This document shows, one piece after another, positions 1 to 10,303 of a stretch of 64,000 bases of DNA; the first letter of the stretch is position 1, and each line of letters begins with the position of its first letter. The notes below the pieces were generated by a model. That model was not told the origin of the DNA. It saw only the letters and a list, made by a program, of their open reading frames with translations, and did not search any database. The position numbers were made by a program, and so were the translations under genes. This DNA is from Thermogemmatispora sp. (GTDB lineage: Bacteria; Chloroflexota; Ktedonobacteria; Ktedonobacterales; Ktedonobacteraceae): positions 78,442-142,441 of the forward strand of contig NZ_JBHOQV010000156.1 of assembly GCF_042408735.1 (NCBI RefSeq). Direction: 5' to 3'.

Positions 1-3000
1 GAGACAGAGCAGGTGCGTCCAAAGCTCTATCGCTGCCGAGCGGTTGAGAAGGTCTCTGGCGCCGATCGCCCCCGCATCGTTATGCTCTATGAGCTTGATC
101 TTGATCCGCTGGAGCGGAAAAACGCTAAGGACTTCTATACACGCACCTACCAGGCGTTGGAGAAGCTGCAGCCAACTGGCCTGGTCCCACGAGCGGAGAC
201 GCCTTTCCCCTGGTCGGACAGGTTTATGGTGGTGCCGATCGTCCCTCCCGAGGGACGCGCCTTGAGCGCTCTCCCGCTACCAGAGACGCGCGAGGAGTTT
301 GTACAGGAGCTGCAGATGGCAGTCCAGGCTTTCAAGGGACTGGCCCAGATCCACGCTCAGGGCGTCCTCCACCGCGCACTGACGCCCGCCGCGCTGATGG
401 TACAGTTCTCAAGAGGCCAGCCTCCTCGGGTGACGTTTAGCGACTTCTACGCCGCCCGCGTCGGCGGCATGTCTATCGCGGCTACTCTGGATAAGACCGC
501 GGTCGATGATCCGTACGCTGCTGAGGATGTGCTGATTGGTTATGAGTTTGCAACGCAGCAGACGGATACTTTTAGCCTGGCGCTGGTACTGCTTGAGCGC
601 CTCTCCGGTACCCCTATTTCTGCACTGCGCCCTACAGTCGATGATCCGCCCCGCCTGCCTGATAAGCCACGCTGGCAGACTTTCCTGACTCCCTCTCTGT
701 CGGCTGCTCTGCTGGAGATCTTTCGCGCTGCATTGCTCCCGCCAGAGGGTGAGCAGCCTCCGACGGCCGATGTGCTGGCTCGCCGCCTGGAAGCTCTGGT
801 GTACGAGGCACAGGATCCACGACAGGATGAGGTTCCTCAGACCTTACTCAACGGACGCTTTATCGTTCATCGCCTGCTTGGCCAGGGAGCCATGGCTTGC
901 ACTTATCTGGCAAGCTACAGGGACTTTCCCGGCTTGGGGCAACAGGTACTTAAGCGCTTCCTGAATCCAGCTGATCTCTACGATCAAGCAATAAATGAAT
1001 ATAAGGCTCTAGAGAGTATTAAGAGCAAGTATTTCCCTACCATCAAAGAGATACATGGGATCAACGAAGATGCACATATCGTTATGGAGTATATCCCCGG
1101 TCCGACGCTGCAGCAGCTAGAAAGGGAATTTCCCTGGCCACTGGAACGCTGGTGGCCGCTGGCTCGCGATTTGCTGCGCGCTCTGACCGTGTTGGAGGAA
1201 CATGGTATCCTGCACCGCGATATTAAGCCGGCTAACATTATTCTGCACGAATTCGATAATCATCCGGTGCTGATAGACTTCGGGTTTGCGATGCGCCGTG
1301 GCGAGGAGCGTAGCCTGGCTGGTACGCCGCTCTATTTGCCGCCCGAGGCCCTGACCGCCGCCAGCCCGCCGGCTGACTGTGACCGCTACGCGGCGGCGGT
1401 GGTGCTTTTCAAGGTGCTGACAGGCAACTTGCCGTTCACCTACGATGAGGGCGGGCAACGCCTCCTGCGCTCGGCTGAGGAGCTTGAAGATGAGCATAAG
1501 CGGCGCCTGGCCACGGTTCTGCTGCGCGCCCTCGATCCTGATCCGGCTCGGCGCCCAACAAGTGCTTCTGCCTTCCTCGAGGAGCTGACGCAGGCCGAGC
1601 TGGCCGCCGTTGTCTTGACCGAGGAGCTCGCTCCGGTCCTGGAGGCAGTCCAGGAGCGCTCAGCCCTGGTAAATCCCTGGGTGGAGCAGGTGCGCGGCCT
1701 TTATCGCAAGAGTGCCAGCGGCAATGCCGATAATCGCGGCCTGGACAGCGACTTTGTGCGTGAGACCTACGTTCCGACAGCCCTCGATCGGCGGTTGCTA
1801 CCGCTTTTGTTGGAGTGCCGCCCCCTGGCTCTTTTCTTGTCGGGAAATCCCGGCGATGGCAAGACGGCTTTTCTGGAGCAGGTGCGCCAGGAGCTGATCA
1901 AGCGCGGGGCAACGGTCAGTCAGGCCGATCAAAGTGGCTGGGAGCTGCACTATGCTGGCCACATTTTCCGGAGCTGTTACGACGCCTCGGAGGCTCATCA
2001 AGGGCTGAGCGCCGATGAGCAGCTGACACGCAAGTTGCAGGGACTGGAAGGGTCCCAGCAGCCGGAGAGGGGGCTAACGGTGCTGGTGGCTATCAACGAT
2101 GGTCGCCTGGCCGACTATTTCGAGCGCTACGGCGAGCGCTTTAGCTGGCTGAGGAGGGAGCTGAGCCGCGAGGGGAAGCGGAATCGCTCGCTACGCGAGC
2201 GGACGGTCTGGCTGGTCGATCTGAAACGTCGCGCTTTTGTGGCGCTGCCGGGCGCAGAGGAGCGCTCGCTTTTCCGGCGCGTCCTGGATAGCCTGGTGGC
2301 CAAAGAGCACTGGACAATCTGCCAGCGCTGCGCCGCTGAGGCTGTCTGTCCGCTTTACCAGAATGCCCAGATGCTGCGCAAGAATCGTACTCGGCAGCGT
2401 CTGGAGTACCTGCTGTTGCTGACCCACCTGCGTCATCAGCGGCATATTACGATGCGCGACTTGCGCTCGGCTCTGGCTTATCTGATCACGGGCAATCTGA
2501 GCTGCCAGGAGGTCCACGCCGCTCGCCAGGGAGAGGATGGCGGGGCTACCCTGATCGAGCGCTCCTGCTGGCAAAGTGCTTTTGCTCCCCTCGAGACGGA
2601 GGATGAGCTGCTGCGCGATCTGCGGGCGCTGGATCCGGCGCGCTTCCCTCAGCCCCATCTGGATCGCTTTCTGCATTTCCATCGGAGCCAGCAAGATGCG
2701 CTCTTGCGCGCTGAGCTGATGGCCGATGGCCGAGATCTTCCACCACAGCGCTTTAAGGAGGAAGGCCAGTGGCTGGCAGCCTGGAAGCGGCGCCTCTACT
2801 TTTATGGCCCGCGCCTGGACGAAGAGAAACTGCCCAATTTGCCGGCTGTTCGCTGGCCCGAGCTGTTGCCCTACCGCTACGCGCTGCTGTACTTGCAGCT
2901 GCTCGAGGGCGAAGTGGAGCAGTTGGAGGAGACGCGCCGCAAGCTGGCTCTGGGCATCCTGCGCTCCGATGGTATTGAGGCCGATCTGCCCGCCGGCTAT

Positions 3001-3381
3001 CTCAGCGTGGTGGTGAAGGCTTCGGAAGAGCAGCAGCTGATTATCTTGAAGCAGTTCCCTCTAGAGGAGTTCGTGCTGGAGCCGGTGGGAAGCGATCAGC
3101 AGGAAGTGATTGAGACGCTGCCAGAGTTTCTCTTGCTGCGCCATCGTTCGGGGATGCCACGCCTGGAGATCTCGCTCGATCTGTTCGAGCTGTTGCTGCG
3201 CCTGGCCGATGGGCTGCAGCCAGAAGCCTGGGAGCTTCAGCCGCTGCTGGAGGATCTGCGCCACTTCAAACACGCCCTTCTGTTGATGGAGACACGCGAT
3301 CTGGTCTTGGTCGAAAATGCCCATCGTCTGTATCACCTGACTCAGCGCGATGGGAAGGTGGTCTGTACGACTATCGCCTGA
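1..3381 (+). CDS. 5'-truncated multidomain protein: degenerate kinase + intact Ser/Thr kinase + P-loop NTPase (MADS Mad6 / DndF-like defence protein)
   Basis: Frame is open from base 1 (ETEQVRPK...). First kinase-like domain HRALTPAAL/SDFY; second GQGAMA, VLK, HRDIKPANII, DFG; later Walker A SGNPGDGKT and INDGRL. Confidence 0.75.
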   Translation, partial: ETEQVRPKLYRCRAVEKVSGADRPRIVMLYELDLDPLERKNAKDFYTRTYQALEKLQPTGLVPRAETPFPWSDRFMVVPIVPPEGRALSALPLPETREEFVQELQMAVQAFKGLAQIHAQGVLHRALTPAALMVQFSRGQPPRVTFSDFYAARVGGMSIAATLDKTAVDDPYAAEDVLIGYEFATQQTDTFSLALVLLERLSGTPISALRPTVDDPPRLPDKPRWQTFLTPSLSAALLEIFRAALLPPEGEQPPTADVLARRLEALVYEAQDPRQDEVPQTLLNGRFIVHRLLGQGAMACTYLASYRDFPGLGQQVLKRFLNPADLYDQAINEYKALESIKSKYFPTIKEIHGINEDAHIVMEYIPGPTLQQLEREFPWPLERWWPLARDLLRALTVLEEHGILHRDIKPANIILHEFDNHPVLIDFGFAMRRGEERSLAGTPLYLPPEALTAASPPADCDRYAAAVVLFKVLTGNLPFTYDEGGQRLLRSAEELEDEHKRRLATVLLRALDPDPARRPTSASAFLEELTQAELAAVVLTEELAPVLEAVQERSALVNPWVEQVRGLYRKSASGNADNRGLDSDFVRETYVPTALDRRLLPLLLECRPLALFLSGNPGDGKTAFLEQVRQELIKRGATVSQADQSGWELHYAGHIFRSCYDASEAHQGLSADEQLTRKLQGLEGSQQPERGLTVLVAINDGRLADYFERYGERFSWLRRELSREGKRNRSLRERTVWLVDLKRRAFVALPGAEERSLFRRVLDSLVAKEHWTICQRCAAEAVCPLYQNAQMLRKNRTRQRLEYLLLLTHLRHQRHITMRDLRSALAYLITGNLSCQEVHAARQGEDGGATLIERSCWQSAFAPLETEDELLRDLRALDPARFPQPHLDRFLHFHRSQQDALLRAELMADGRDLPPQRFKEEGQWLAAWKRRLYFYGPRLDEEKLPNLPAVRWPELLPYRYALLYLQLLEGEVEQLEETRRKLALGILRSDGIEADLPAGYLSVVVKASEEQQLIILKQFPLEEFVLEPVGSDQQEVIETLPEFLLLRHRSGMPRLEISLDLFELLLRLADGLQPEAWELQPLLEDLRHFKHALLLMETRDLVLVENAHRLYHLTQRDGKVVCTTIA

Positions 3382-3410
3382 TCCTCAGGTAAGCACGAAG
3401 GAGAGCGACC

Positions 3411-5150
3411 GTGAAAGTAAAGCTGCCGAAAGACTTGCGCGGGGTGCGCTTCCCTCAAATGCTCCCTATCGAGATGAATGATTTTGACATCGATCTGCTT
3501 CTGCCTCTGCTGTTTTTTTCTATTCTTTCGGGAGGACGTGCCCGAGCAGGCATGAAAAACGACCCCAGTGCCATCGGTTTCTACATCGACCAGTTAAGTC
3601 AGCACCCAGCTGTCGAGGGTTTTGCAAGCCCTGAGAGGAGGCGCCTGCTGGAACGGCTGGTTCGTACTGCCCTGATTACTGTAGGGCGCGTTGGCCGCGG
3701 CCATAAGGATGAGCAGATTACATCTATTGTTCCCTATAACCTGCTTTGCTACAAGCCAGGCTTTCCAGAGAAATCAAGCCGTCTACGTAGTACAGATCTT
3801 TTTATCTACCAAATACTCCATAATTACCTTGGAAGCGATCAAGAACTCCGTCAATTTATTAAAGATGCTTTTGGACGTGGCATTGTCATCGGTCCCCCCG
3901 GCCAATTAGGAGGCGGTTACGATGGCGCCACAGAGCTGGATACTCTCACACGCCTCTCGCTGGCCTTTCTCGATGGCTTCGAGAGCATCAGACCTGGCCT
4001 GGGCCGAGACAAAAATAGCTATACTGGTGCCTGCCCGGGTCTGGCGCGTGAGCTGGCAGCGGACCTTGTGCAGTATATGTCTGCCTACCACGCCACCATG
4101 CCAACGCCGGCTTTCATTCACCATCTCCTGATTTTGATTAACTTTGAACTGTTTACCTACACCCTGAAGGTGGTCCACGCGGTGAACGCGCTCGTGGCCC
4201 AGCCAGAGAGCCTGCCTCCCGCCATGCGTGAGCCGCTGGAACCGTCACCCCCCGCCATCTATGTGGACTTCACCGGCCAGCCCGGCCCCAGTCAGGAGAT
4301 GGCTCGGGCCTGTGTGCGTCGCGACATCGAAGCCTACCAGAGCTTCTTGTCGGCGAATCTGTTGCTGCGCCAGTTGCATCGCTACGTGGAACAGCTCCAG
4401 CGAAACATCCGTCGGCGCGCTCTCATAGAACGCTTGCTTGGGAATGAGACCTCCGGTCCTCTCTACCTGCAACGCCTGCTGAGTCTACAGGGCCAAGCCG
4501 ACATCGAGGCCCAGGCCCGTCAGGACATCGACAAGATCTTTGACGAGAACAGCGAAGAGGCGAAAAATGATAGCAATGGCAATCATCACGATCTAGGAGA
4601 AGGACAAGAAAATAAGTTAGCTCGAAAGTATTTAGAGGACCTGCTCGCCAGCGCCGAGAGCGATCTAGAGGGCCTGGTCATCCTTTTGAAGGAGGGCCAG
4701 CGCGAAGCCACGCAGAATTTCGTGCGCTGGTACTGGAGCACGGGAGGTCTGACACGCGCTGAAGGTTTGCTCCGCGGGCAGCTGAAATACCGCTCGTCAT
4801 GGCAATATGCACCAACCAACGATCTACTGGCGGTCCTCGTGCAGCTTGCGGCGGCTCGCCTGAGCAACGGGAAAAATGGCGACCAGGAAGAGCAGAACGG
4901 TGATGGCCCTAGGCCCATCCGTCTGCAAGATTTCCTGCGCTTTCTCGACGAGCGCTTTGGCCTGCTCATCGATCGCCCACCCGCCCCCTTTGTGGGGGCC
5001 GAATACACTGCCGCCGCTCAGGAGAACCTGCGCGCCATGCAGCGCCGCCTGCGTCAGATGGGCATCTTTCGCGATCTCTCGGATGACTTCACGGTCCAGC
5101 GTCTTCACCCGCCCTATGCACCCTATACCATGGCGACATTACGGGGCTGA
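3411..5150 (+). CDS. Hypothetical 579-aa protein, Mad7/DndG-like by position and size
   Basis: Long ORF with GTG start and GAAGGAG upstream. Lies between the kinase gene and the giant ATPase. C-terminal ...RQMGIFRDLSDDFTVQRL. Confidence 0.6.
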   Translation: MKVKLPKDLRGVRFPQMLPIEMNDFDIDLLLPLLFFSILSGGRARAGMKNDPSAIGFYIDQLSQHPAVEGFASPERRRLLERLVRTALITVGRVGRGHKDEQITSIVPYNLLCYKPGFPEKSSRLRSTDLFIYQILHNYLGSDQELRQFIKDAFGRGIVIGPPGQLGGGYDGATELDTLTRLSLAFLDGFESIRPGLGRDKNSYTGACPGLARELAADLVQYMSAYHATMPTPAFIHHLLILINFELFTYTLKVVHAVNALVAQPESLPPAMREPLEPSPPAIYVDFTGQPGPSQEMARACVRRDIEAYQSFLSANLLLRQLHRYVEQLQRNIRRRALIERLLGNETSGPLYLQRLLSLQGQADIEAQARQDIDKIFDENSEEAKNDSNGNHHDLGEGQENKLARKYLEDLLASAESDLEGLVILLKEGQREATQNFVRWYWSTGGLTRAEGLLRGQLKYRSSWQYAPTNDLLAVLVQLAAARLSNGKNGDQEEQNGDGPRPIRLQDFLRFLDERFGLLIDRPPAPFVGAEYTAAAQENLRAMQRRLRQMGIFRDLSDDFTVQRLHPPYAPYTMATLRG

Positions 5151-5182
5151 TGCACTGAGCCTGCACTGGAAAGGGTTCAACT

Positions 5183-8100
5183 ATGGTGCTTTTTTCCCAA
5201 CAGAGCGATCTCAAGATTGAATTGCTGACAGAAGCGATCCTGAAGGAGTTGAAGGGGGCAGGTCCCGGCCACTGTGCCCGCGTCGATTTTCTGGAACTGG
5301 AGGATGTCCTTCTCCTCTGCCAGAGGTTACGCACGAGCCAGGAGGCCCAACAGGAAACGCTCTTTTACATCCTGGCCACGGAACGGAGCCAGACCGTCGA
5401 TGATCTTTTTATTCCCCCCGACCGCGCCATCGAGCTGCGCAACCGCAAGACTGGACGCTTTTGCCTCTTCATTCCCGCAGGCAGTGTGGATGCTACCGCC
5501 AGCTCTCTGGCCAACGCCTTCGCCCCCATCGACGGGCGCCAGCTTTATGAGGCAGCGCTGCGTGAGCTACAGCACCGCCTTCAGGTACGCTCTCCCGAAA
5601 CCGCTGCCCAAGTCCGCACGGTCTTCAGCCATCTGCGCCGCTGGCCTGGCCTGAGTCACGAGCGCCGCCTGGATTTCGTGGCTGCAGCCTTCGCCCGCGT
5701 CCAGAACGGTACGCCAGAGCGGCTCGGCCTGGAGTTATGGCGCGTCGGCCTCATCAGCGACGCCCGGCCCGAGTTTACCAACTACCTTGAGCGCAACCGG
5801 CGCCTGACTACCTTGCTGGCCCGGCCCAAGAAGTTTGACGCTACCCTGGTTGAGCGGGTGCAGGAGCTAAAGGTAGACACCCCCACCGCTAGAGAGCTGC
5901 TGCGCTTCTTGCAGGGCTACGTCCTCAGCGATGTCCACAGTTGGTCGCGCGCTCTGGAACAGGCTGAGTTGACGCTGGATCGCTGGCAGTTCATCCAGTA
6001 CGAGGAAAGCGATCTACGCGAATTTGAGCTTGTGCCTTTCATTAATCCCAAAGGAGAGGTCGAACGCTTTTGCCGTCTGGCTCAGCCCTATGGGCCAGGT
6101 AGTGCTCTCTACGCCTACTACGGTGAAAAAGGCGAGATGGTGGTACGCTGGAAGTGTAGGCCGGATAAACCTCGCAACCTGGGTGGCTGGCGCGTAGCTA
6201 TCGTGCCCGAGGAGTGCGAGCCGGGCTTTCGCGATAGCCTTTGGGAGCAGGACATTACGCAGAACCGGCGCAGCATCACTATCAGGCTAGACAAGCTCAA
6301 CCTTGATAATGAGGAGCCTCCCGACAGCGCCGTTTGCGTGCGCGTGGCCCCTCTGGGACCGGATGGCAATGAGCTGGTGACCAGGATCGGGGAAAAGGAG
6401 GAAATCTACTATAAAGACAGCCTGGCCTTTTATCTGTCCCCCGATCCGAGCTACCTGCCAGCTCCTACCACCGGCGACAGGCGCCAGACAGTGCCCACCC
6501 TTCCCTGGGGCCGGCTCAAGGTCGGCAGCGAGATCAGAGAGACCATTCTGGAGGAAAGCCTGCCCCAATGGCAGCATCACCAGTTCGCTTATTTCAGCCT
6601 GCTGCTCAACGGCAGAGATCGGTTAACCCTGGCCCTGAGCGAGACCTTACTGCAGCTGGAAGAGCGCATCCTTAAGGAGCCTGCTCAGGGTGGCTGTTTT
6701 CTTCTGGAGGTTGAAGAGCTGCGCCCCGTGCCGGCTGAGGCTATCAGGCCCTTCCCGCTGGCAACCGGTGAGGGCGAACAATGGCGCCATTTCTGGCGCC
6801 AGCGTGAGCTGTTCTTCCGGCGCCTGCGCCAGTCTGAGGGGCGCAGCGTGATCGAGGTGGCCGATTGGAGCAGCAGCCCCGACCTGGCCGATGCCGCCGT
6901 CCGTTATGCTCAGGCCTATCAGGCGCTGCTTGAGGAGCTGCTGGCAGGCAAGGCCAACAGCGACTTGCTGATCCAGGCCCTCTCTGTTGACAGCCTGCTC
7001 ATTCGCTTCATGAAGCAGGACCAAGTCGAAGAGGCCCTGATTATTCTGCCGACCCATCCGCTGCGTGCTGCCTGGTTTGCCGGCTATAGCAGACTGCTCA
7101 GCTCCTGGGAGGAAGTCCTGCTCGATCAGCCAAAGGAGCAGCGCAGGCGCCGCATCGACCTGGATACGCTCCGCCTGCTTGTTCCAGCCAATGTACCGCC
7201 ATTCGCCTATCATGCGGCCACCTCAACCGTCTTCATCTTCTTCCAGAATCTGCTTTTCTTCCACGGTGTAGCCTTGCCCGCCGCCGTCCCTGATCCCCAC
7301 CGGCGCTACGCCGACGTCGCCACCCTTCTCAACGCAAGACCTGAGAAGACCGATCCGGGCGATATTCGCCCTGAGCGTCTCAGCGAGCATCTTCGGCTCT
7401 TCCAAAGCCTGCATCCTTACGCTGATCCGCTGGTCCTGACCCTGGTCAATCCCGACCGCGGGGCCTTACTCGGCGAGGCTCTTAAGGGGTTGGCCCCCTC
7501 CTCAAAAGAGGAGGAAGAGGAGGAGGAAGGAATCAGCACAGGACCGGCAGGCGCCTTGCCGCTGCTTCAGATTGTCTCTTACAGCGAAAGCTGGCAGAGC
7601 GGCGCGCTGCAGGCCCTGACACGCACCTTACAGGAGAACGGCGGTCGGCACCTCTCTGGCTCAGGCCGCTCGACCGACCCTTTCCTGCCAGCTCTGGCTA
7701 CTACCACTCGACCGATCCGTCAACTACAAGAGGTGGAGGAGGAGCCACCCGAGTCGCATCTGGCCATTGTCAGCGACCTGCTCCGTCCACAGATCGTCGC
7801 CGTTCCCACCCAAGGAATGGCTTCGCTTAGCAGCGAGGTAAGCAGCTTCTCGCTCTATGGGCTGCTGCCACGCTTCATCTCCCAATTCAGCCAGGAAGGC
7901 AAGGCGCTTCTCTGGCGCTATCAGATCCTGACCGGTGGGGGGAAGCCTCTCCCTCACCCTGGAGGCCCGCGCTACAGCGAGACCTTGATCGACCTGCATA
8001 CCACGCTGCTCAAGGCTGGGGGCTACCTGCTCCAGGGAGAGACGGAGATGCAGCCCGCACTGCAGGTCACCCTCACGGCGGAGCTGCGCACCCTTCTGGA

Positions 8101-10303
8101 GAAGCTGCATCAGCGGGCCAACTGGGTGATTAATCTGGATCGCTTCTTCACCCTGGATTACTATGACTCGCCTCACCTGCCTGGCCTGGAGGAGGTGGCT
8201 CGCAAGTACGTGCTGGACTACTCGCCGGAGTTCACCGAGGGACTGGGGCACCGCATGATAGTGACCACCGCATGGCATCAGGAAATCACCTCGATGCTGG
8301 CTCAGGCGATGGAGGAGCTGGGCTTCTCACGCCTGGAAGAGAGCGTCAGCCGCCTGCTGCATGCCCTCAAAACCATCTCTGGGCGCCTGGCCCTGGAGGC
8401 CCTGGAGTCACCTTCGAGCGCTGCCGCCGCCGTGAGCCTTGGCGTGGTCGCCGCCTGGCTTGAACGCCAGGGTCGCCTTAAGCAGGCTGTCCTACTACCC
8501 GTCGACCTTTACCCGCGGATCTTCGCCAGCGGAGGCTCAGGGCAGCCAACCACCGGAGAGCACCACTGCGACCTGGCACTGATCGCTCTGAAGCGCAACA
8601 TCGTCGAAGCGACTTTCATCGAGGTCAAGTGGCGTCGCGGCTCCGTCCCACTTGAGCGCCTGGCGAGCGATATGGCCGTGCAGATGCGAGCAACCGCCGA
8701 AATGATGCAGCAGCGCTTCTTCGATCGGCAGCAGCTCGATGGCGCCATCCAGCGCGCCTACCTGGCCAACGTCTTGCGCTTCTACTTCGAACGTGCTCGC
8801 CGCTACCGGCTCTTCGACCCCCAGGCCGAAGCGGCCTTTCTAGACAACCTGGCCCGGCTTGAAAAGGCCGAGCTAGACTTTCGCCCCTTCTACGAAGGCT
8901 ATATCGTCAGCCTGGACAGCGAGCCGCGCAAACCCCTGGACATCGGCGGGGTCCGCATTCGGCTACTAACCGTGAGCGACTTCCGATCACTCCCCTTCAT
9001 CGAGGGCAGCACAGCCGAAACCCCTGAAGGCGTCGAGCCAGTCTCAGAAGGCGCCGAGACCTATCCGGGGCCTTCAGCCGGCGAGATAGAGCCTGGGGGA
9101 GCGGAAACCGGCGAGGCTGCCTCTCTGCCCGAGGCAGAGGACCAGCCCTATAGCCAGGTTCAGCGGGACGGGGGAGAGAAGGACGCCACCCTGCTCATGC
9201 CCACGCCAGTCTGGCGAAAGCAGCCAGACACAGCAGACGCTACAGACCGCGAGCAGCTACGCATCCCTCTCGGTCGCTCGCTGGGTGGACCGATCTACTG
9301 GAAGCCAGGCATCCAGGGCAGCCCTCATCTCTTTATTCTGGGCATCCCTGGTCAGGGGAAATCGTGGACCATTGAGCACTTGCTGGGCGAGCTAAGCCAG
9401 CAAGGTGTTCCGGCCCTCGTGTTGGACTTCCACGGCCAGTTCGCTGACCCCCAGGGGCGCTACTACCAGCGCGTTCGGCCTAACGTTCTCGACGCGGCCA
9501 GGGGCCTGCCGTTCAGTCCCTTCGAATGTGCCGCTTCCGGCTTGGCCTGGCGCACCAACGCTCTGGCCATCTCGGAGATTTTCGCCCAGGTCGCCGGCCT
9601 GGGAGCAATACAGCGCGATGTCATCTACACTGCTGTTCGTGACGCCTATCACGCCCACGGCTTCGAAGATGAGCTGAGCAAAGAAGAACGCAGCAAGCTG
9701 ACCTACCCCACCCTCCAGGAGGTCTTTCACCGCATCGAGCTGACAGCAAAGCAGCATCAGGTGGGCAATGTGACCGCTCGCTGCCGGCCGCTGCTCGAAA
9801 TGGATCTCTTCCGGCCCGAGGAGCCGCCTGTCAATCTCTCTTCGCTCATCGGGCCGGGCCTGGTGATCGACCTGCACCAACTCTACGCAGAGCTACTGCA
9901 ACTGAGCGCCGGCGCCTTTCTCCTCCACAAACTCTACAAAGACATGTTCCACTGGGGTCCTGCTGAGCGCCTGCGCCTGGCCATCGTCCTCGATGAGGCC
10001 CACCGCCTGGCGAAGGATAGAACGCTGCCCCGGCTCATGAAGGAAGGGCGCAAGTTCGGTATCGCGGTCATCGTCGCCAGCCAGAGCCTGGGAGACTTTC
10101 ATCCCGAGATCCTCAACAACGCCGGCACCCGCATCATCTTCCGCATGAACTACCCAGAATCGCGCAAAGCCGCCAGCTTCATTCGCGCTGGCCAGGGAAG
10201 CCAGATCATAGAGCGCATCGAGCAGCTAAGCGTCGGTAGGGCCTACGTTCAGACGCCCGAGATGCGCCAGGCCCTGATCGTTCGGATAGGTCCAGACGCC
10301 TGA
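5183..10303 (+). CDS. 1706-aa protein with C-terminal HerA/FtsK-type ATPase and a PD-(D/E)xK-like motif (Mad8/DndH-like)
   Basis: Walker A GIPGQGKS, Walker B IVLDEAH, EGRKFG, ASQ, RIIFR; upstream CDLALI...FIEVKW. Confidence 0.75.
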   Translation: MVLFSQQSDLKIELLTEAILKELKGAGPGHCARVDFLELEDVLLLCQRLRTSQEAQQETLFYILATERSQTVDDLFIPPDRAIELRNRKTGRFCLFIPAGSVDATASSLANAFAPIDGRQLYEAALRELQHRLQVRSPETAAQVRTVFSHLRRWPGLSHERRLDFVAAAFARVQNGTPERLGLELWRVGLISDARPEFTNYLERNRRLTTLLARPKKFDATLVERVQELKVDTPTARELLRFLQGYVLSDVHSWSRALEQAELTLDRWQFIQYEESDLREFELVPFINPKGEVERFCRLAQPYGPGSALYAYYGEKGEMVVRWKCRPDKPRNLGGWRVAIVPEECEPGFRDSLWEQDITQNRRSITIRLDKLNLDNEEPPDSAVCVRVAPLGPDGNELVTRIGEKEEIYYKDSLAFYLSPDPSYLPAPTTGDRRQTVPTLPWGRLKVGSEIRETILEESLPQWQHHQFAYFSLLLNGRDRLTLALSETLLQLEERILKEPAQGGCFLLEVEELRPVPAEAIRPFPLATGEGEQWRHFWRQRELFFRRLRQSEGRSVIEVADWSSSPDLADAAVRYAQAYQALLEELLAGKANSDLLIQALSVDSLLIRFMKQDQVEEALIILPTHPLRAAWFAGYSRLLSSWEEVLLDQPKEQRRRRIDLDTLRLLVPANVPPFAYHAATSTVFIFFQNLLFFHGVALPAAVPDPHRRYADVATLLNARPEKTDPGDIRPERLSEHLRLFQSLHPYADPLVLTLVNPDRGALLGEALKGLAPSSKEEEEEEEGISTGPAGALPLLQIVSYSESWQSGALQALTRTLQENGGRHLSGSGRSTDPFLPALATTTRPIRQLQEVEEEPPESHLAIVSDLLRPQIVAVPTQGMASLSSEVSSFSLYGLLPRFISQFSQEGKALLWRYQILTGGGKPLPHPGGPRYSETLIDLHTTLLKAGGYLLQGETEMQPALQVTLTAELRTLLEKLHQRANWVINLDRFFTLDYYDSPHLPGLEEVARKYVLDYSPEFTEGLGHRMIVTTAWHQEITSMLAQAMEELGFSRLEESVSRLLHALKTISGRLALEALESPSSAAAAVSLGVVAAWLERQGRLKQAVLLPVDLYPRIFASGGSGQPTTGEHHCDLALIALKRNIVEATFIEVKWRRGSVPLERLASDMAVQMRATAEMMQQRFFDRQQLDGAIQRAYLANVLRFYFERARRYRLFDPQAEAAFLDNLARLEKAELDFRPFYEGYIVSLDSEPRKPLDIGGVRIRLLTVSDFRSLPFIEGSTAETPEGVEPVSEGAETYPGPSAGEIEPGGAETGEAASLPEAEDQPYSQVQRDGGEKDATLLMPTPVWRKQPDTADATDREQLRIPLGRSLGGPIYWKPGIQGSPHLFILGIPGQGKSWTIEHLLGELSQQGVPALVLDFHGQFADPQGRYYQRVRPNVLDAARGLPFSPFECAASGLAWRTNALAISEIFAQVAGLGAIQRDVIYTAVRDAYHAHGFEDELSKEERSKLTYPTLQEVFHRIELTAKQHQVGNVTARCRPLLEMDLFRPEEPPVNLSSLIGPGLVIDLHQLYAELLQLSAGAFLLHKLYKDMFHWGPAERLRLAIVLDEAHRLAKDRTLPRLMKEGRKFGIAVIVASQSLGDFHPEILNNAGTRIIFRMNYPESRKAASFIRAGQGSQIIERIEQLSVGRAYVQTPEMRQALIVRIGPDA

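Follow-up and report, generated by a model that had tools for sequence, protein, structure and literature searches.

The window analysed here is a 64,000-nt stretch of DNA (C2:78442-142441) from a Thermogemmatispora metagenome-assembled genome (MAG) of 5.77 Mb, which comprises 211 contigs and is 94.6% complete. The window opens inside a set of three large, consecutive genes on the plus strand, hereafter G1, G2 and G3, which are separated by spacers of 29 nt (G1-G2) and 32 nt (G2-G3) and resemble the Mad6-Mad7-Mad8 and DndFGH proteins (Table 1). The first-pass annotation had described three co-oriented, closely spaced genes of more than 1126, 579 and 1706 aa, and our open reading frame (ORF) calls agreed with this description. 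The DNA upstream of the window revealed that G1 begins with a GTG codon 582 nt upstream of the window edge; the first residue in the window is G1 residue 195, and the full protein contains 1320 aa. The kinase, P-loop, nuclease and HerA/FtsK motifs claimed for these genes were all found (HRDIKPAN, GNPGDGKT, ExK and GIPGQGKS, respectively), as was the motif-free middle gene. The three ORFs are not chance, because they are intact across the genus and the class and show ratios of non-synonymous to synonymous substitution rates (dN/dS) of 0.07-0.18. Upstream of the G1 GTG codon, we found TAAGGAGG and a promoter-like site, TTGCCC-18-TGcTATAAT. Because a ribosome-binding site (RBS) and a promoter-like site precede G1, the cassette appears to have start signals of its own. 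No RNA run was present among the runs listed as holding trio sequence; the holders were hot-spring metagenome DNA runs only.

Table 1. Genes and domains of the trio, with positions in the window and, where stated, residues of the full-length proteins.
Feature	Position	Strand	Remarks
G1, MAD6-like / kinase-fused DndF	1..3381, 5'-open	+	1126 aa in window, 1320 aa in full
G1 NERD nuclease-like domain	residues 12-122, outside window	+	Pfam NERD 5e-16
G1 inactive kinase-like domain	106..798, ~residues 230-460 (boundaries approximate)	+	second, weaker Pkinase stretch
G1 active Ser/Thr kinase domain	865..1569, residues 483-717	+	Pfam Pkinase 4e-37 (289-523 in window numbering)
G1 DndF/SspF core	1774..3378	+	derived P-loop kinase, then C-terminal alpha+beta region
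G2, MAD7 / DndG-like	3411..5150	+	579 aa, GTG start
G3, DndH / Mad8-like giant protein	5183..10303	+	1706 aa
G3 middle region	6020..8422, ~residues 280-1080	+	predicted beta-sandwiches, then predicted alpha/beta region with methyltransferase-like Rossmann fold
G3 PD-(D/E)xK restriction-endonuclease domain	8480..8977	+	D1130, E1147, K1149; CDLALI...FIEVKW
G3 linker, disordered, acidic/Pro-rich	8978..9229, ~residues 1266-1349	+	hypervariable; pLDDT <50 at model end
G3 HerA/FtsK-type ATPase	9230..10288	+	Pfam TrwB_AAD_bind 1.9e-11, DUF87 6e-9, HerA_C

The full-length G1 protein scored 481.9 bits against the NCBIfam MAD6 model (NF047741, cut-off of 460), with residues 1-597 aligned, and was matched by the PADLOC mad6 model at 3.5e-40. 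To describe the conservation of its motifs, we used an alignment of 20 orthologues, of which 15 belonged to the clade of stand-alone trios and five were either MADS-linked or from a divergent locus, L048. The first kinase-like domain has HRA in its catalytic loop, with the catalytic Asp gone, SDF or TNF in place of DFG, and an FSDFYAA motif. These pseudokinase motifs (HRA and [ST][DN]F) were found in 15/15 stand-alone-clade orthologues; in the five MADS-linked or L048 sequences the loop was HRN or HRD, and DFG was likewise missing. The second kinase domain carries the G-loop GQGAMA, a VLK Lys, HRDIKPAN and DFG, and its sequence matches in the PDB included the kinases PknB and ULK3 (~1e-17). 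Within the stand-alone clade, the G-loop and HRDIKP[AES]N were present in 15/15 sequences, and the VLK-type Lys and DFG in 14/15 each (DFS in L054), whereas the MADS-linked clade carried H[QC]D and DFN instead.

The remaining part of G1 is a DndF/SspF core, which the PADLOC SspF models matched between window residues 592 and 879 (786-1073 of the full protein) at 5.4e-32 and 2.6e-27; Pfam AAA_16 gave a weak match to the P-loop region. The core contains the Walker A motif GNPGDGKT (K815), an INDG strand and a Cys cluster, CxxCx6C. The corresponding patterns, G-N-[PA]-G-D-G-K-T, IN[DE]G and the Cys cluster with 6 or 7 residues before its third Cys, were found in 20/20 orthologues. The NERD domain was likewise conserved in the 15 stand-alone-clade orthologues. 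Rakesh, Aravind and Krishnan (NAR 2024, PMC10853773) described the DndF core as having a canonical Walker A motif, an Asn-containing strand motif, an optional Zn-binding insert and a large helical lid, and they reported a DndF fusion in which NERD and tandem inactive and active Ser/Thr/Tyr kinases precede the derived P-loop kinase. At the sequence level, the G1 core matches these DndF features in its Walker A motif, Asn-type strand and putative Zn-binding insert. In contrast, classical DndF and SspF lack the ~780 additional N-terminal residues of G1 that contain NERD and the two kinase domains. PglW of type 2 BREX has an N-terminal arrangement in common with G1, namely a NERD-like domain, a pseudokinase and a Ser/Thr kinase; the NCBIfam PglW model scored 153 bits on G1 residues 15-718, against a cut-off of 990. 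However, the C-terminal half of G1 is a DndF core and not the PglW C-terminus, the PglX, PglY and PglZ partners are absent, and no BREX genes were found at the locus.

G2 scored 472.9 bits, end to end, against the NCBIfam MAD7 model (NF047733, cut-off of 410), and the PADLOC mad7 and SspG models matched it at 2.3e-17 and 3e-5, respectively. The precomputed Pfam family PF26611 (MAD7) is assigned to all G2 homologues, and NCBI names its relatives MAD7. G2 contained no catalytic motif and had no match in our local Pfam copy, and a sequence search against the PDB returned no matches. An AlphaFold2 (AF2) model of G2 was built on 33 sequences, with a predicted local distance difference test score (pLDDT) of 86.7 and a predicted template modelling score (pTM) of 0.89. 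When this model was compared with the PDB, only one structure matched significantly, namely 7exx, a crystal structure of DndG (E of 3.9e-6, probability of 1.00 and TM-score of 0.52 on the target), and the runner-up had an E of 0.37. DndG has been described as the constant DNA-binding subunit of DndFGH (PMC10853773), and G2 is predicted to be a DNA-binding subunit.

G3 was matched by the PADLOC models of DndH (1.7e-35), mad8 (1.9e-24) and SspH (1e-7). An AF2 model was obtained for residues 240-1285, with a pLDDT of 79.8 and a pTM of 0.71. Foldseek searches with this multi-domain model revealed beta-sandwiches of the fibronectin type III (FnIII) type with a probability of 1.0, along with weak matches to S-adenosylmethionine (SAM)-dependent methyltransferases (best E of 4e-3); a BpuSI-type match was not found with residues 240-1285. 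Inspection of the middle region by eye did not reveal an intact SAM motif or [SDN]PP[FYW]. According to PMC10853773, the N-terminal plan of DndH comprises an inactive SWI2/SNF2 domain, a helix-turn-helix (HTH), two beta-sandwiches, a target recognition domain (TRD) and an inactive Dam methylase with a nested TRD, and DndH ends in a restriction endonuclease and a HerA/FtsK domain. The modelled folds of G3 are consistent with this eight-domain plan but are not proof of it.

In the nuclease domain of G3, D1130 was invariant and E1147 and K1149 were at least 90% conserved among 21-22 orthologues, including canonical Mad8. In the model, one strand begins with the Asp and the adjacent strand contains ExK, as in PD-(D/E)xK enzymes. 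The linker that follows showed only 23-40% identity within the genus, compared with ~75% in the rest of G3, and its length varied among orthologues. We also considered whether a specificity cassette had been swapped in G3 and rejected this candidate, as the within-genus identity profile was flat save for the disordered linker. The C-terminal ATPase contains the Walker A motif GIPGQGKS (K1393), the Walker B motif VLDEAH and, after an Arg-containing stretch, a Gln in ASQS. Its matches in the PDB included HerA (4d2i, 1.5e-8) and the DptH (DndH) C-terminal domain (7es4, 1e-6).

We compared the trio with the experimentally known systems. When plasmids were searched with G2 by tblastn, we identified an operon on a Piscinibacter gummiphilus plasmid that encodes an HTH protein, an N6 methylase of 668 aa, an AAA ATPase of 445 aa, proteins of 215 and 443 aa, a protein kinase of 1391 aa and proteins of 557 and 1858 aa; these eight genes correspond to the order mad1-mad8. 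Residues 42-1366 of Piscinibacter Mad6 (of 1391) aligned to G1 with an E of 7e-60, residues 1-547 of Mad7 aligned to G2, and residues 572-1251 of Mad8 (680 residues) aligned to G3 with an E of 1e-33. Since Mad6, Mad7 and Mad8 align to G1, G2 and G3, respectively, the window trio is, on these alignments, homologous to Mad6-8. The assignment proposed in the first-pass annotation, MADS mad6-7-8 or DndFGH-like, was therefore borne out by MAD6 and MAD7 scores above their cut-offs, by the likeness of the G2 model to 7exx, by the Piscinibacter alignments and by the PADLOC check, which returned mad6, mad7, mad8, SspF, SspG, SspH and DndH.

The MADS system of P. aeruginosa SMC4386 (Maestri et al., 10.1101/2023.03.30.534895) has the same order, Mad6-Mad7-Mad8. 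The protein sizes are similar (1320, 579 and 1706 aa in the trio and 1391, 557 and 1858 aa in the canonical plasmid copy), and NERD, pseudokinase, kinase, P-loop, D..ExK and HerA/FtsK are common to both. However, MADS also has mad1 (HTH), mad2 (N6 methylase), mad3 and mad4 (OLD-like ATPase and Toprim nuclease) and mad5, none of which is present at the trio locus; copies linked to mad2-5 and the trio form separate lineages in the MAD7 tree, and the MAD8 score of the trio is under the cut-off. Each of mad6, mad7 and mad8 is required for MADS defence, which discriminates self by N6-methyladenine (m6A) and needs its own methylase (10.1101/2023.03.30.534895; see also PMC13662399). In the MADS detection model, only mad6-8 are mandatory and mad1-5 are accessory (10.1101/2023.03.30.534895). 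In a 2026 paper, Mad7-Mad8 is regarded as a second ATPase-nuclease module, and its coordination with Mad3-Mad4 is left open. DndFGH (DptFGH) and SspFGH (PMC8092258) share the order of the trio, in which F has a P-loop, G is of medium size with no catalytic motif and H, of ~1700 aa, has a nuclease and an ATPase. DndFGH is usually decoupled from dndABCDE and has been proposed to be a stand-alone counter-invader system (PMC10853773). This proposal has the same concept and the same DndF fusion architecture as the trio; it is computational, names no Ktedonobacteria example and does not contain the string 'Chloroflex' in its text.

To describe the distribution of the trio, the MAD7 model was run across Ktedonobacteria, where it matched 35/169 genomes and 18/62 genera, including 8/8 Thermogemmatispora genomes. 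Twenty 20-kb Ktedonobacteria regions were fetched and sorted into three groups. Four were canonical MADS loci, 42-59% identical to the Piscinibacter plasmid operon, with mad2 and mad5 in 4/4 and mad3 and mad4 in 2/4; one (L048) was divergent, and mad2-5 were not seen in it; the other 15 were loci of the window type, 40-57% identical and without mad1-5. Counting the locus of this genome, mad1-5 were absent in 16/16 loci of the trio's clade. In the MAD7 tree, the mad2-5-linked copies formed one clade with 100/100 support, and all stand-alone copies fell outside it in a large, diverse lineage; because of this position, the stand-alone copies are not recent deletion derivatives.

Within the genus, among loci with readable flanks, the context of the trio was the same in several MAGs and in T. 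carboxidivorans, T. aurantia and T. tikiterensis. Thermogemmatispora has retained the trio vertically, whereas its distribution class-wide is patchy. Within-genus identities were 72-80% for the trio and 81-96% for flanking proteins, with the exception of a radical-SAM protein (63-77%). The trio proteins are under purifying selection yet fast-evolving, since the dN/dS values given above go with a dN that is 2-5 times that of the flanking genes. The radical-SAM gene adjoins the trio genus-wide, and it is the one flanking gene whose rate of evolution is close to that of the trio (dN/dS of 0.14-0.24).

The trio, with its ~3600 codons, was intact in this genome and in four of the five complete Thermogemmatispora loci (L004, from T. 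carboxidivorans, and L006, L009 and L011). In the fifth, from the cultured strain T. tikiterensis T81 (L005:12549-15345, NZ_MCIF01000002.1), a 2.8-kb insertion splits G3 after residue ~272; it encodes an IS605-family TnpB with OrfB_IS605 and Cas12f1-like TNB domains and makes this strain a natural knock-out. Decayed stand-alone trios were also found elsewhere, with G1 and G3 fragmented in L050 (G088), G1 fragmented in L053 (G061) and a TAG stop in G2 of L062 (G078). The decayed copies point to recurrent loss in Ktedonobacteria. Distant stand-alone trios adjoin BrxL, or SIR2 with an N6_N4 methylase, or a UvrD-like helicase with a DO-GTPase and a type I restriction-modification (RM) system; these neighbourhoods are defence-island contexts. 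In a Ktedonobacter (L051:12829-19936, G144), the divergent neighbours of the stand-alone trio are a gene for BrxL, a Lon-like protease, and two more large genes, which suggests that a BREX locus adjoins the trio and that this genome has a defence island there. At L049:14445-16952 (G102), an 835-aa protein containing PNP_UDP phosphorylase, CHAT protease and VWA domains is encoded beside a VWA protein and a stand-alone trio, and its architecture resembles that of a conflict system.

The searches for a marking partner covered the locus and the genome. In the 18 kb upstream of the trio, we found no N6-adenine methyltransferase, specificity, OLD, dnd or ssp genes, and no linked methylase or specificity gene (mad2, mad5) was present there or in the ~54 kb downstream. 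The upstream neighbours of G1 are iolE-like, iolD and iolC genes of inositol catabolism, a LacI regulator gene and a radical-SAM gene of the PA0069 family, while genes for a pentapeptide-repeat protein, a DUF4388 protein, a sodium:solute symporter (SSF) and an S9 peptidase lie downstream of G3. A modification module directly upstream of the window was therefore rejected, as the 18 kb hold only iol genes, LacI and radical-SAM. The radical-SAM gene (PA0069/Rv2578c family, L003:6398-7564) is located outside the window, ~295-1460 nt upstream of G1. The spacing between this gene and G1 is 295 nt, with the promoter-like site inside, and in other carriers the gene is not adjacent to the trio. It was rejected as a fourth component, since only Thermogemmatispora and one close MAG have it next to the trio. 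A conserved fourth gene of any other kind was also rejected, because all-against-all clustering of flanking ORFs from 16 loci showed that only the trio recurs; the other clusters consisted of antisense shadow ORFs and an unrelated short-chain dehydrogenase/reductase (SDR) gene in three loci.

Genome-wide, tblastn with Piscinibacter Mad1-5 was negative for Mad1 and found no homologue of Mad3, Mad4 or Mad5 (for Mad3 and Mad4, none at an E of 1e-3), and the one marginal Mad2-like match fell on an unrelated, 1419-aa MmeI-like enzyme. The DndC model (TIGR03183) had no match in the genome; the DndE model (PF08870) had none either, but it was also silent in control genomes and cannot show absence. 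Coupling to dndABCDE or sspABCD was not found, with DndC silent, the DndE search weak and SspABCD not searched by model. The first-pass annotation had placed the marking module either upstream of the window or nowhere; the upstream DNA did not contain it, and the genome searches for Mad3-5 and DndC, along with the weaker one for DndE, favoured the second option. The marking partner is lacking, and its absence is not due to where the window begins. The same annotation had held that a missing partner would make the trio a new variant. This holds only in part, as stand-alone DndFGH with the same fusion is already described in PMC10853773 and mad1-5 are accessory in the MADS model.

Elsewhere in the genome, there were four N6_Mtase-domain matches in three proteins (on contigs C112, C103 and C62), which are large enzymes. 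On the reverse strand of C103 (35654-39911), an ORF of 1419 aa combines a nuclease-like motif at its N-terminus (D...DAK, seen by eye) with a C-terminal N6-methylase that has GNPPY; it resembles MmeI-like type IIL/IIG enzymes, and several Ser/Thr kinase genes are located on the same contig. The C62 protein is likewise large and fused. The third (C112:17565-19823) is an Eco57I-like N6-methylase of ~750-782 aa without an obvious nuclease domain, and it is unlinked to the trio. All Thermogemmatispora genomes (8/8) keep this methylase, and its copies are 62-80% identical, a range similar to that of the trio. Its full-length orthologues are found in this genus and one other only, and 2/5 carriers in the latter have the trio. 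It was rejected as an obligate partner, as most other trio carriers are without it.

Taken together, we consider the trio to be a stand-alone, three-gene DNA-restriction-type defence cassette of the Mad6-7-8 / DndFGH / SspFGH family, with a probability of roughly 0.8. Its behaviour in populations is defence-like, with patchy presence, decayed copies or copies hit by an insertion sequence (IS), and relatives beside defence genes. By homology with the relatives described above, we infer complex formation, the activities of the subunits, an anti-phage function and the mode of discrimination. G1, G2 and G3 would assemble as a single complex, in which G2, through its DndG fold, and the DNA-reading domains of G3 would bind DNA. 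Within G3, the HerA/FtsK ATPase at the C-terminus would serve as a DNA translocase, and the PD-(D/E)xK domain would nick or cut invader DNA. G1 would act as a sensor or regulator, with its DndF-type P-loop kinase domain binding a nucleotide and its live Ser/Thr kinase and NERD domains serving as signalling or regulatory modules or as back-up effectors.

For such a cassette, discrimination between self and non-self is most likely independent of modification, because no linked or co-occurring marking gene was found and the split from the methylase-linked clade is deep. The cue might be the topology, entry or replication of invader DNA, or invader nucleotides; a borrowed, unlinked mark would be less likely. 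A bolder claim, which we put forward tentatively and at less than even odds, is that the F-G-H trio is a fully autonomous, mark-free immune machine. It would represent a lineage that is widespread, separate from the MADS clade linked to methylases, and responsive to another cue, and that is fixed and vertically inherited in Thermogemmatispora. The HerA/FtsK motor might then catch DNA that is entering or being packaged, or the DndF P-loop and the kinase might sense invader nucleotides or proteins. Ser/Thr phosphorylation could provide a licensing step or an abortive-infection switch, and MADS, Dnd and Ssp would be the same engine with different marking modules bolted on.

Several observations weigh against the assignment of the trio to a stand-alone defence cassette. 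Identity to canonical Mad6-8 is only ~25%, and the NCBIfam MAD8 model (NF047742), which spans only ~200 N-terminal positions, scored 47 bits on G3 residues 29-231, against a cut-off of 175. Classical DndF, DndG and DndH NCBIfam models were absent among the matches of G1, G2 and G3, and the fold comparison supported an inactive methylase and a TRD in G3 only weakly (Foldseek E of 4e-3 at best). MADS also needs mad2-4, and the core may not suffice alone (10.1101/2023.03.30.534895). The three other N6-methylase-domain proteins make an unlinked mark possible, and a partner could sit in sequence that is absent from the incomplete MAG. In addition, the Thermogemmatispora locus is fixed among housekeeping genes, an unusual setting if it were a mobile defence island.

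The best of the alternatives, which we nevertheless regard as improbable, is a split system, in which the trio is the restriction arm and a methyltransferase elsewhere in the chromosome, such as the Eco57I-like C112 enzyme, protects the host by a mark as in MADS. MADS uses m6A and needs a methylase, the genome has three N6_Mtase-domain proteins, and the C112 enzyme accompanies the trio throughout the genus with comparable divergence. However, a methylase was not adjacent in any of the 16 clade loci, and a Mad5-like specificity protein was not found. The C112 orthologues are confined to two genera, the trio accompanies only 2/5 of them in the second, and most trio carriers lack the enzyme. Of the other two candidates, the C103 enzyme has an MmeI-like N-terminal nuclease motif of its own and the C62 enzyme is large and fused. 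Moreover, G3 lacks a swapped or hypervariable specificity cassette in the genus.

It is highly unlikely that the trio is a relic of an eight-gene MADS that lost mad1-5 and is drifting to functionless decay. Broken copies exist (the IS605/TnpB-split copy of T. tikiterensis, L050, L053 and L062), and a nuclease arm without its methylase might be silenced; however, the ~3600 codons are intact at the dN/dS values given above with all catalytic motifs kept, stand-alone copies lie outside the mad2-5-linked clade, and G1 has a promoter-like site and an RBS. We give just as little credence to a housekeeping role, in which a kinase-regulated HerA/FtsK-nuclease complex was recruited for chromosome maintenance or repair in this genus, as in HerA-NurA: its fixed position between metabolic genes, its MAD7 gene in every genome of the genus, its adjoining PA0069-family radical-SAM gene and the lack of an obvious defence island here agree with such a role, but the family is absent from 134/169 Ktedonobacteria genomes and repeatedly pseudogenised, also within the genus, its non-synonymous rate exceeds that of the flanks, radical-SAM is unlinked in other carriers, relatives adjoin BREX, SIR2 and RM genes, and the MADS homologues are proven defence genes.

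The conceptual gain from the stand-alone cassette is little, as its family, its DndF fusion and its lack of a partner module had all been published before, and curated NCBIfam and Pfam models already name the proteins. The locus offers a clean, intact, thermophile-derived example of a methylase-less Mad6-8 / kinase-DndFGH trio, with clear boundaries and a promoter-like site of its own, and sister genomes provide natural knock-outs. If trios of this kind defend alone, they would reveal how a large restriction-type machine discriminates self without epigenetic marks, and also what the kinase contributes.

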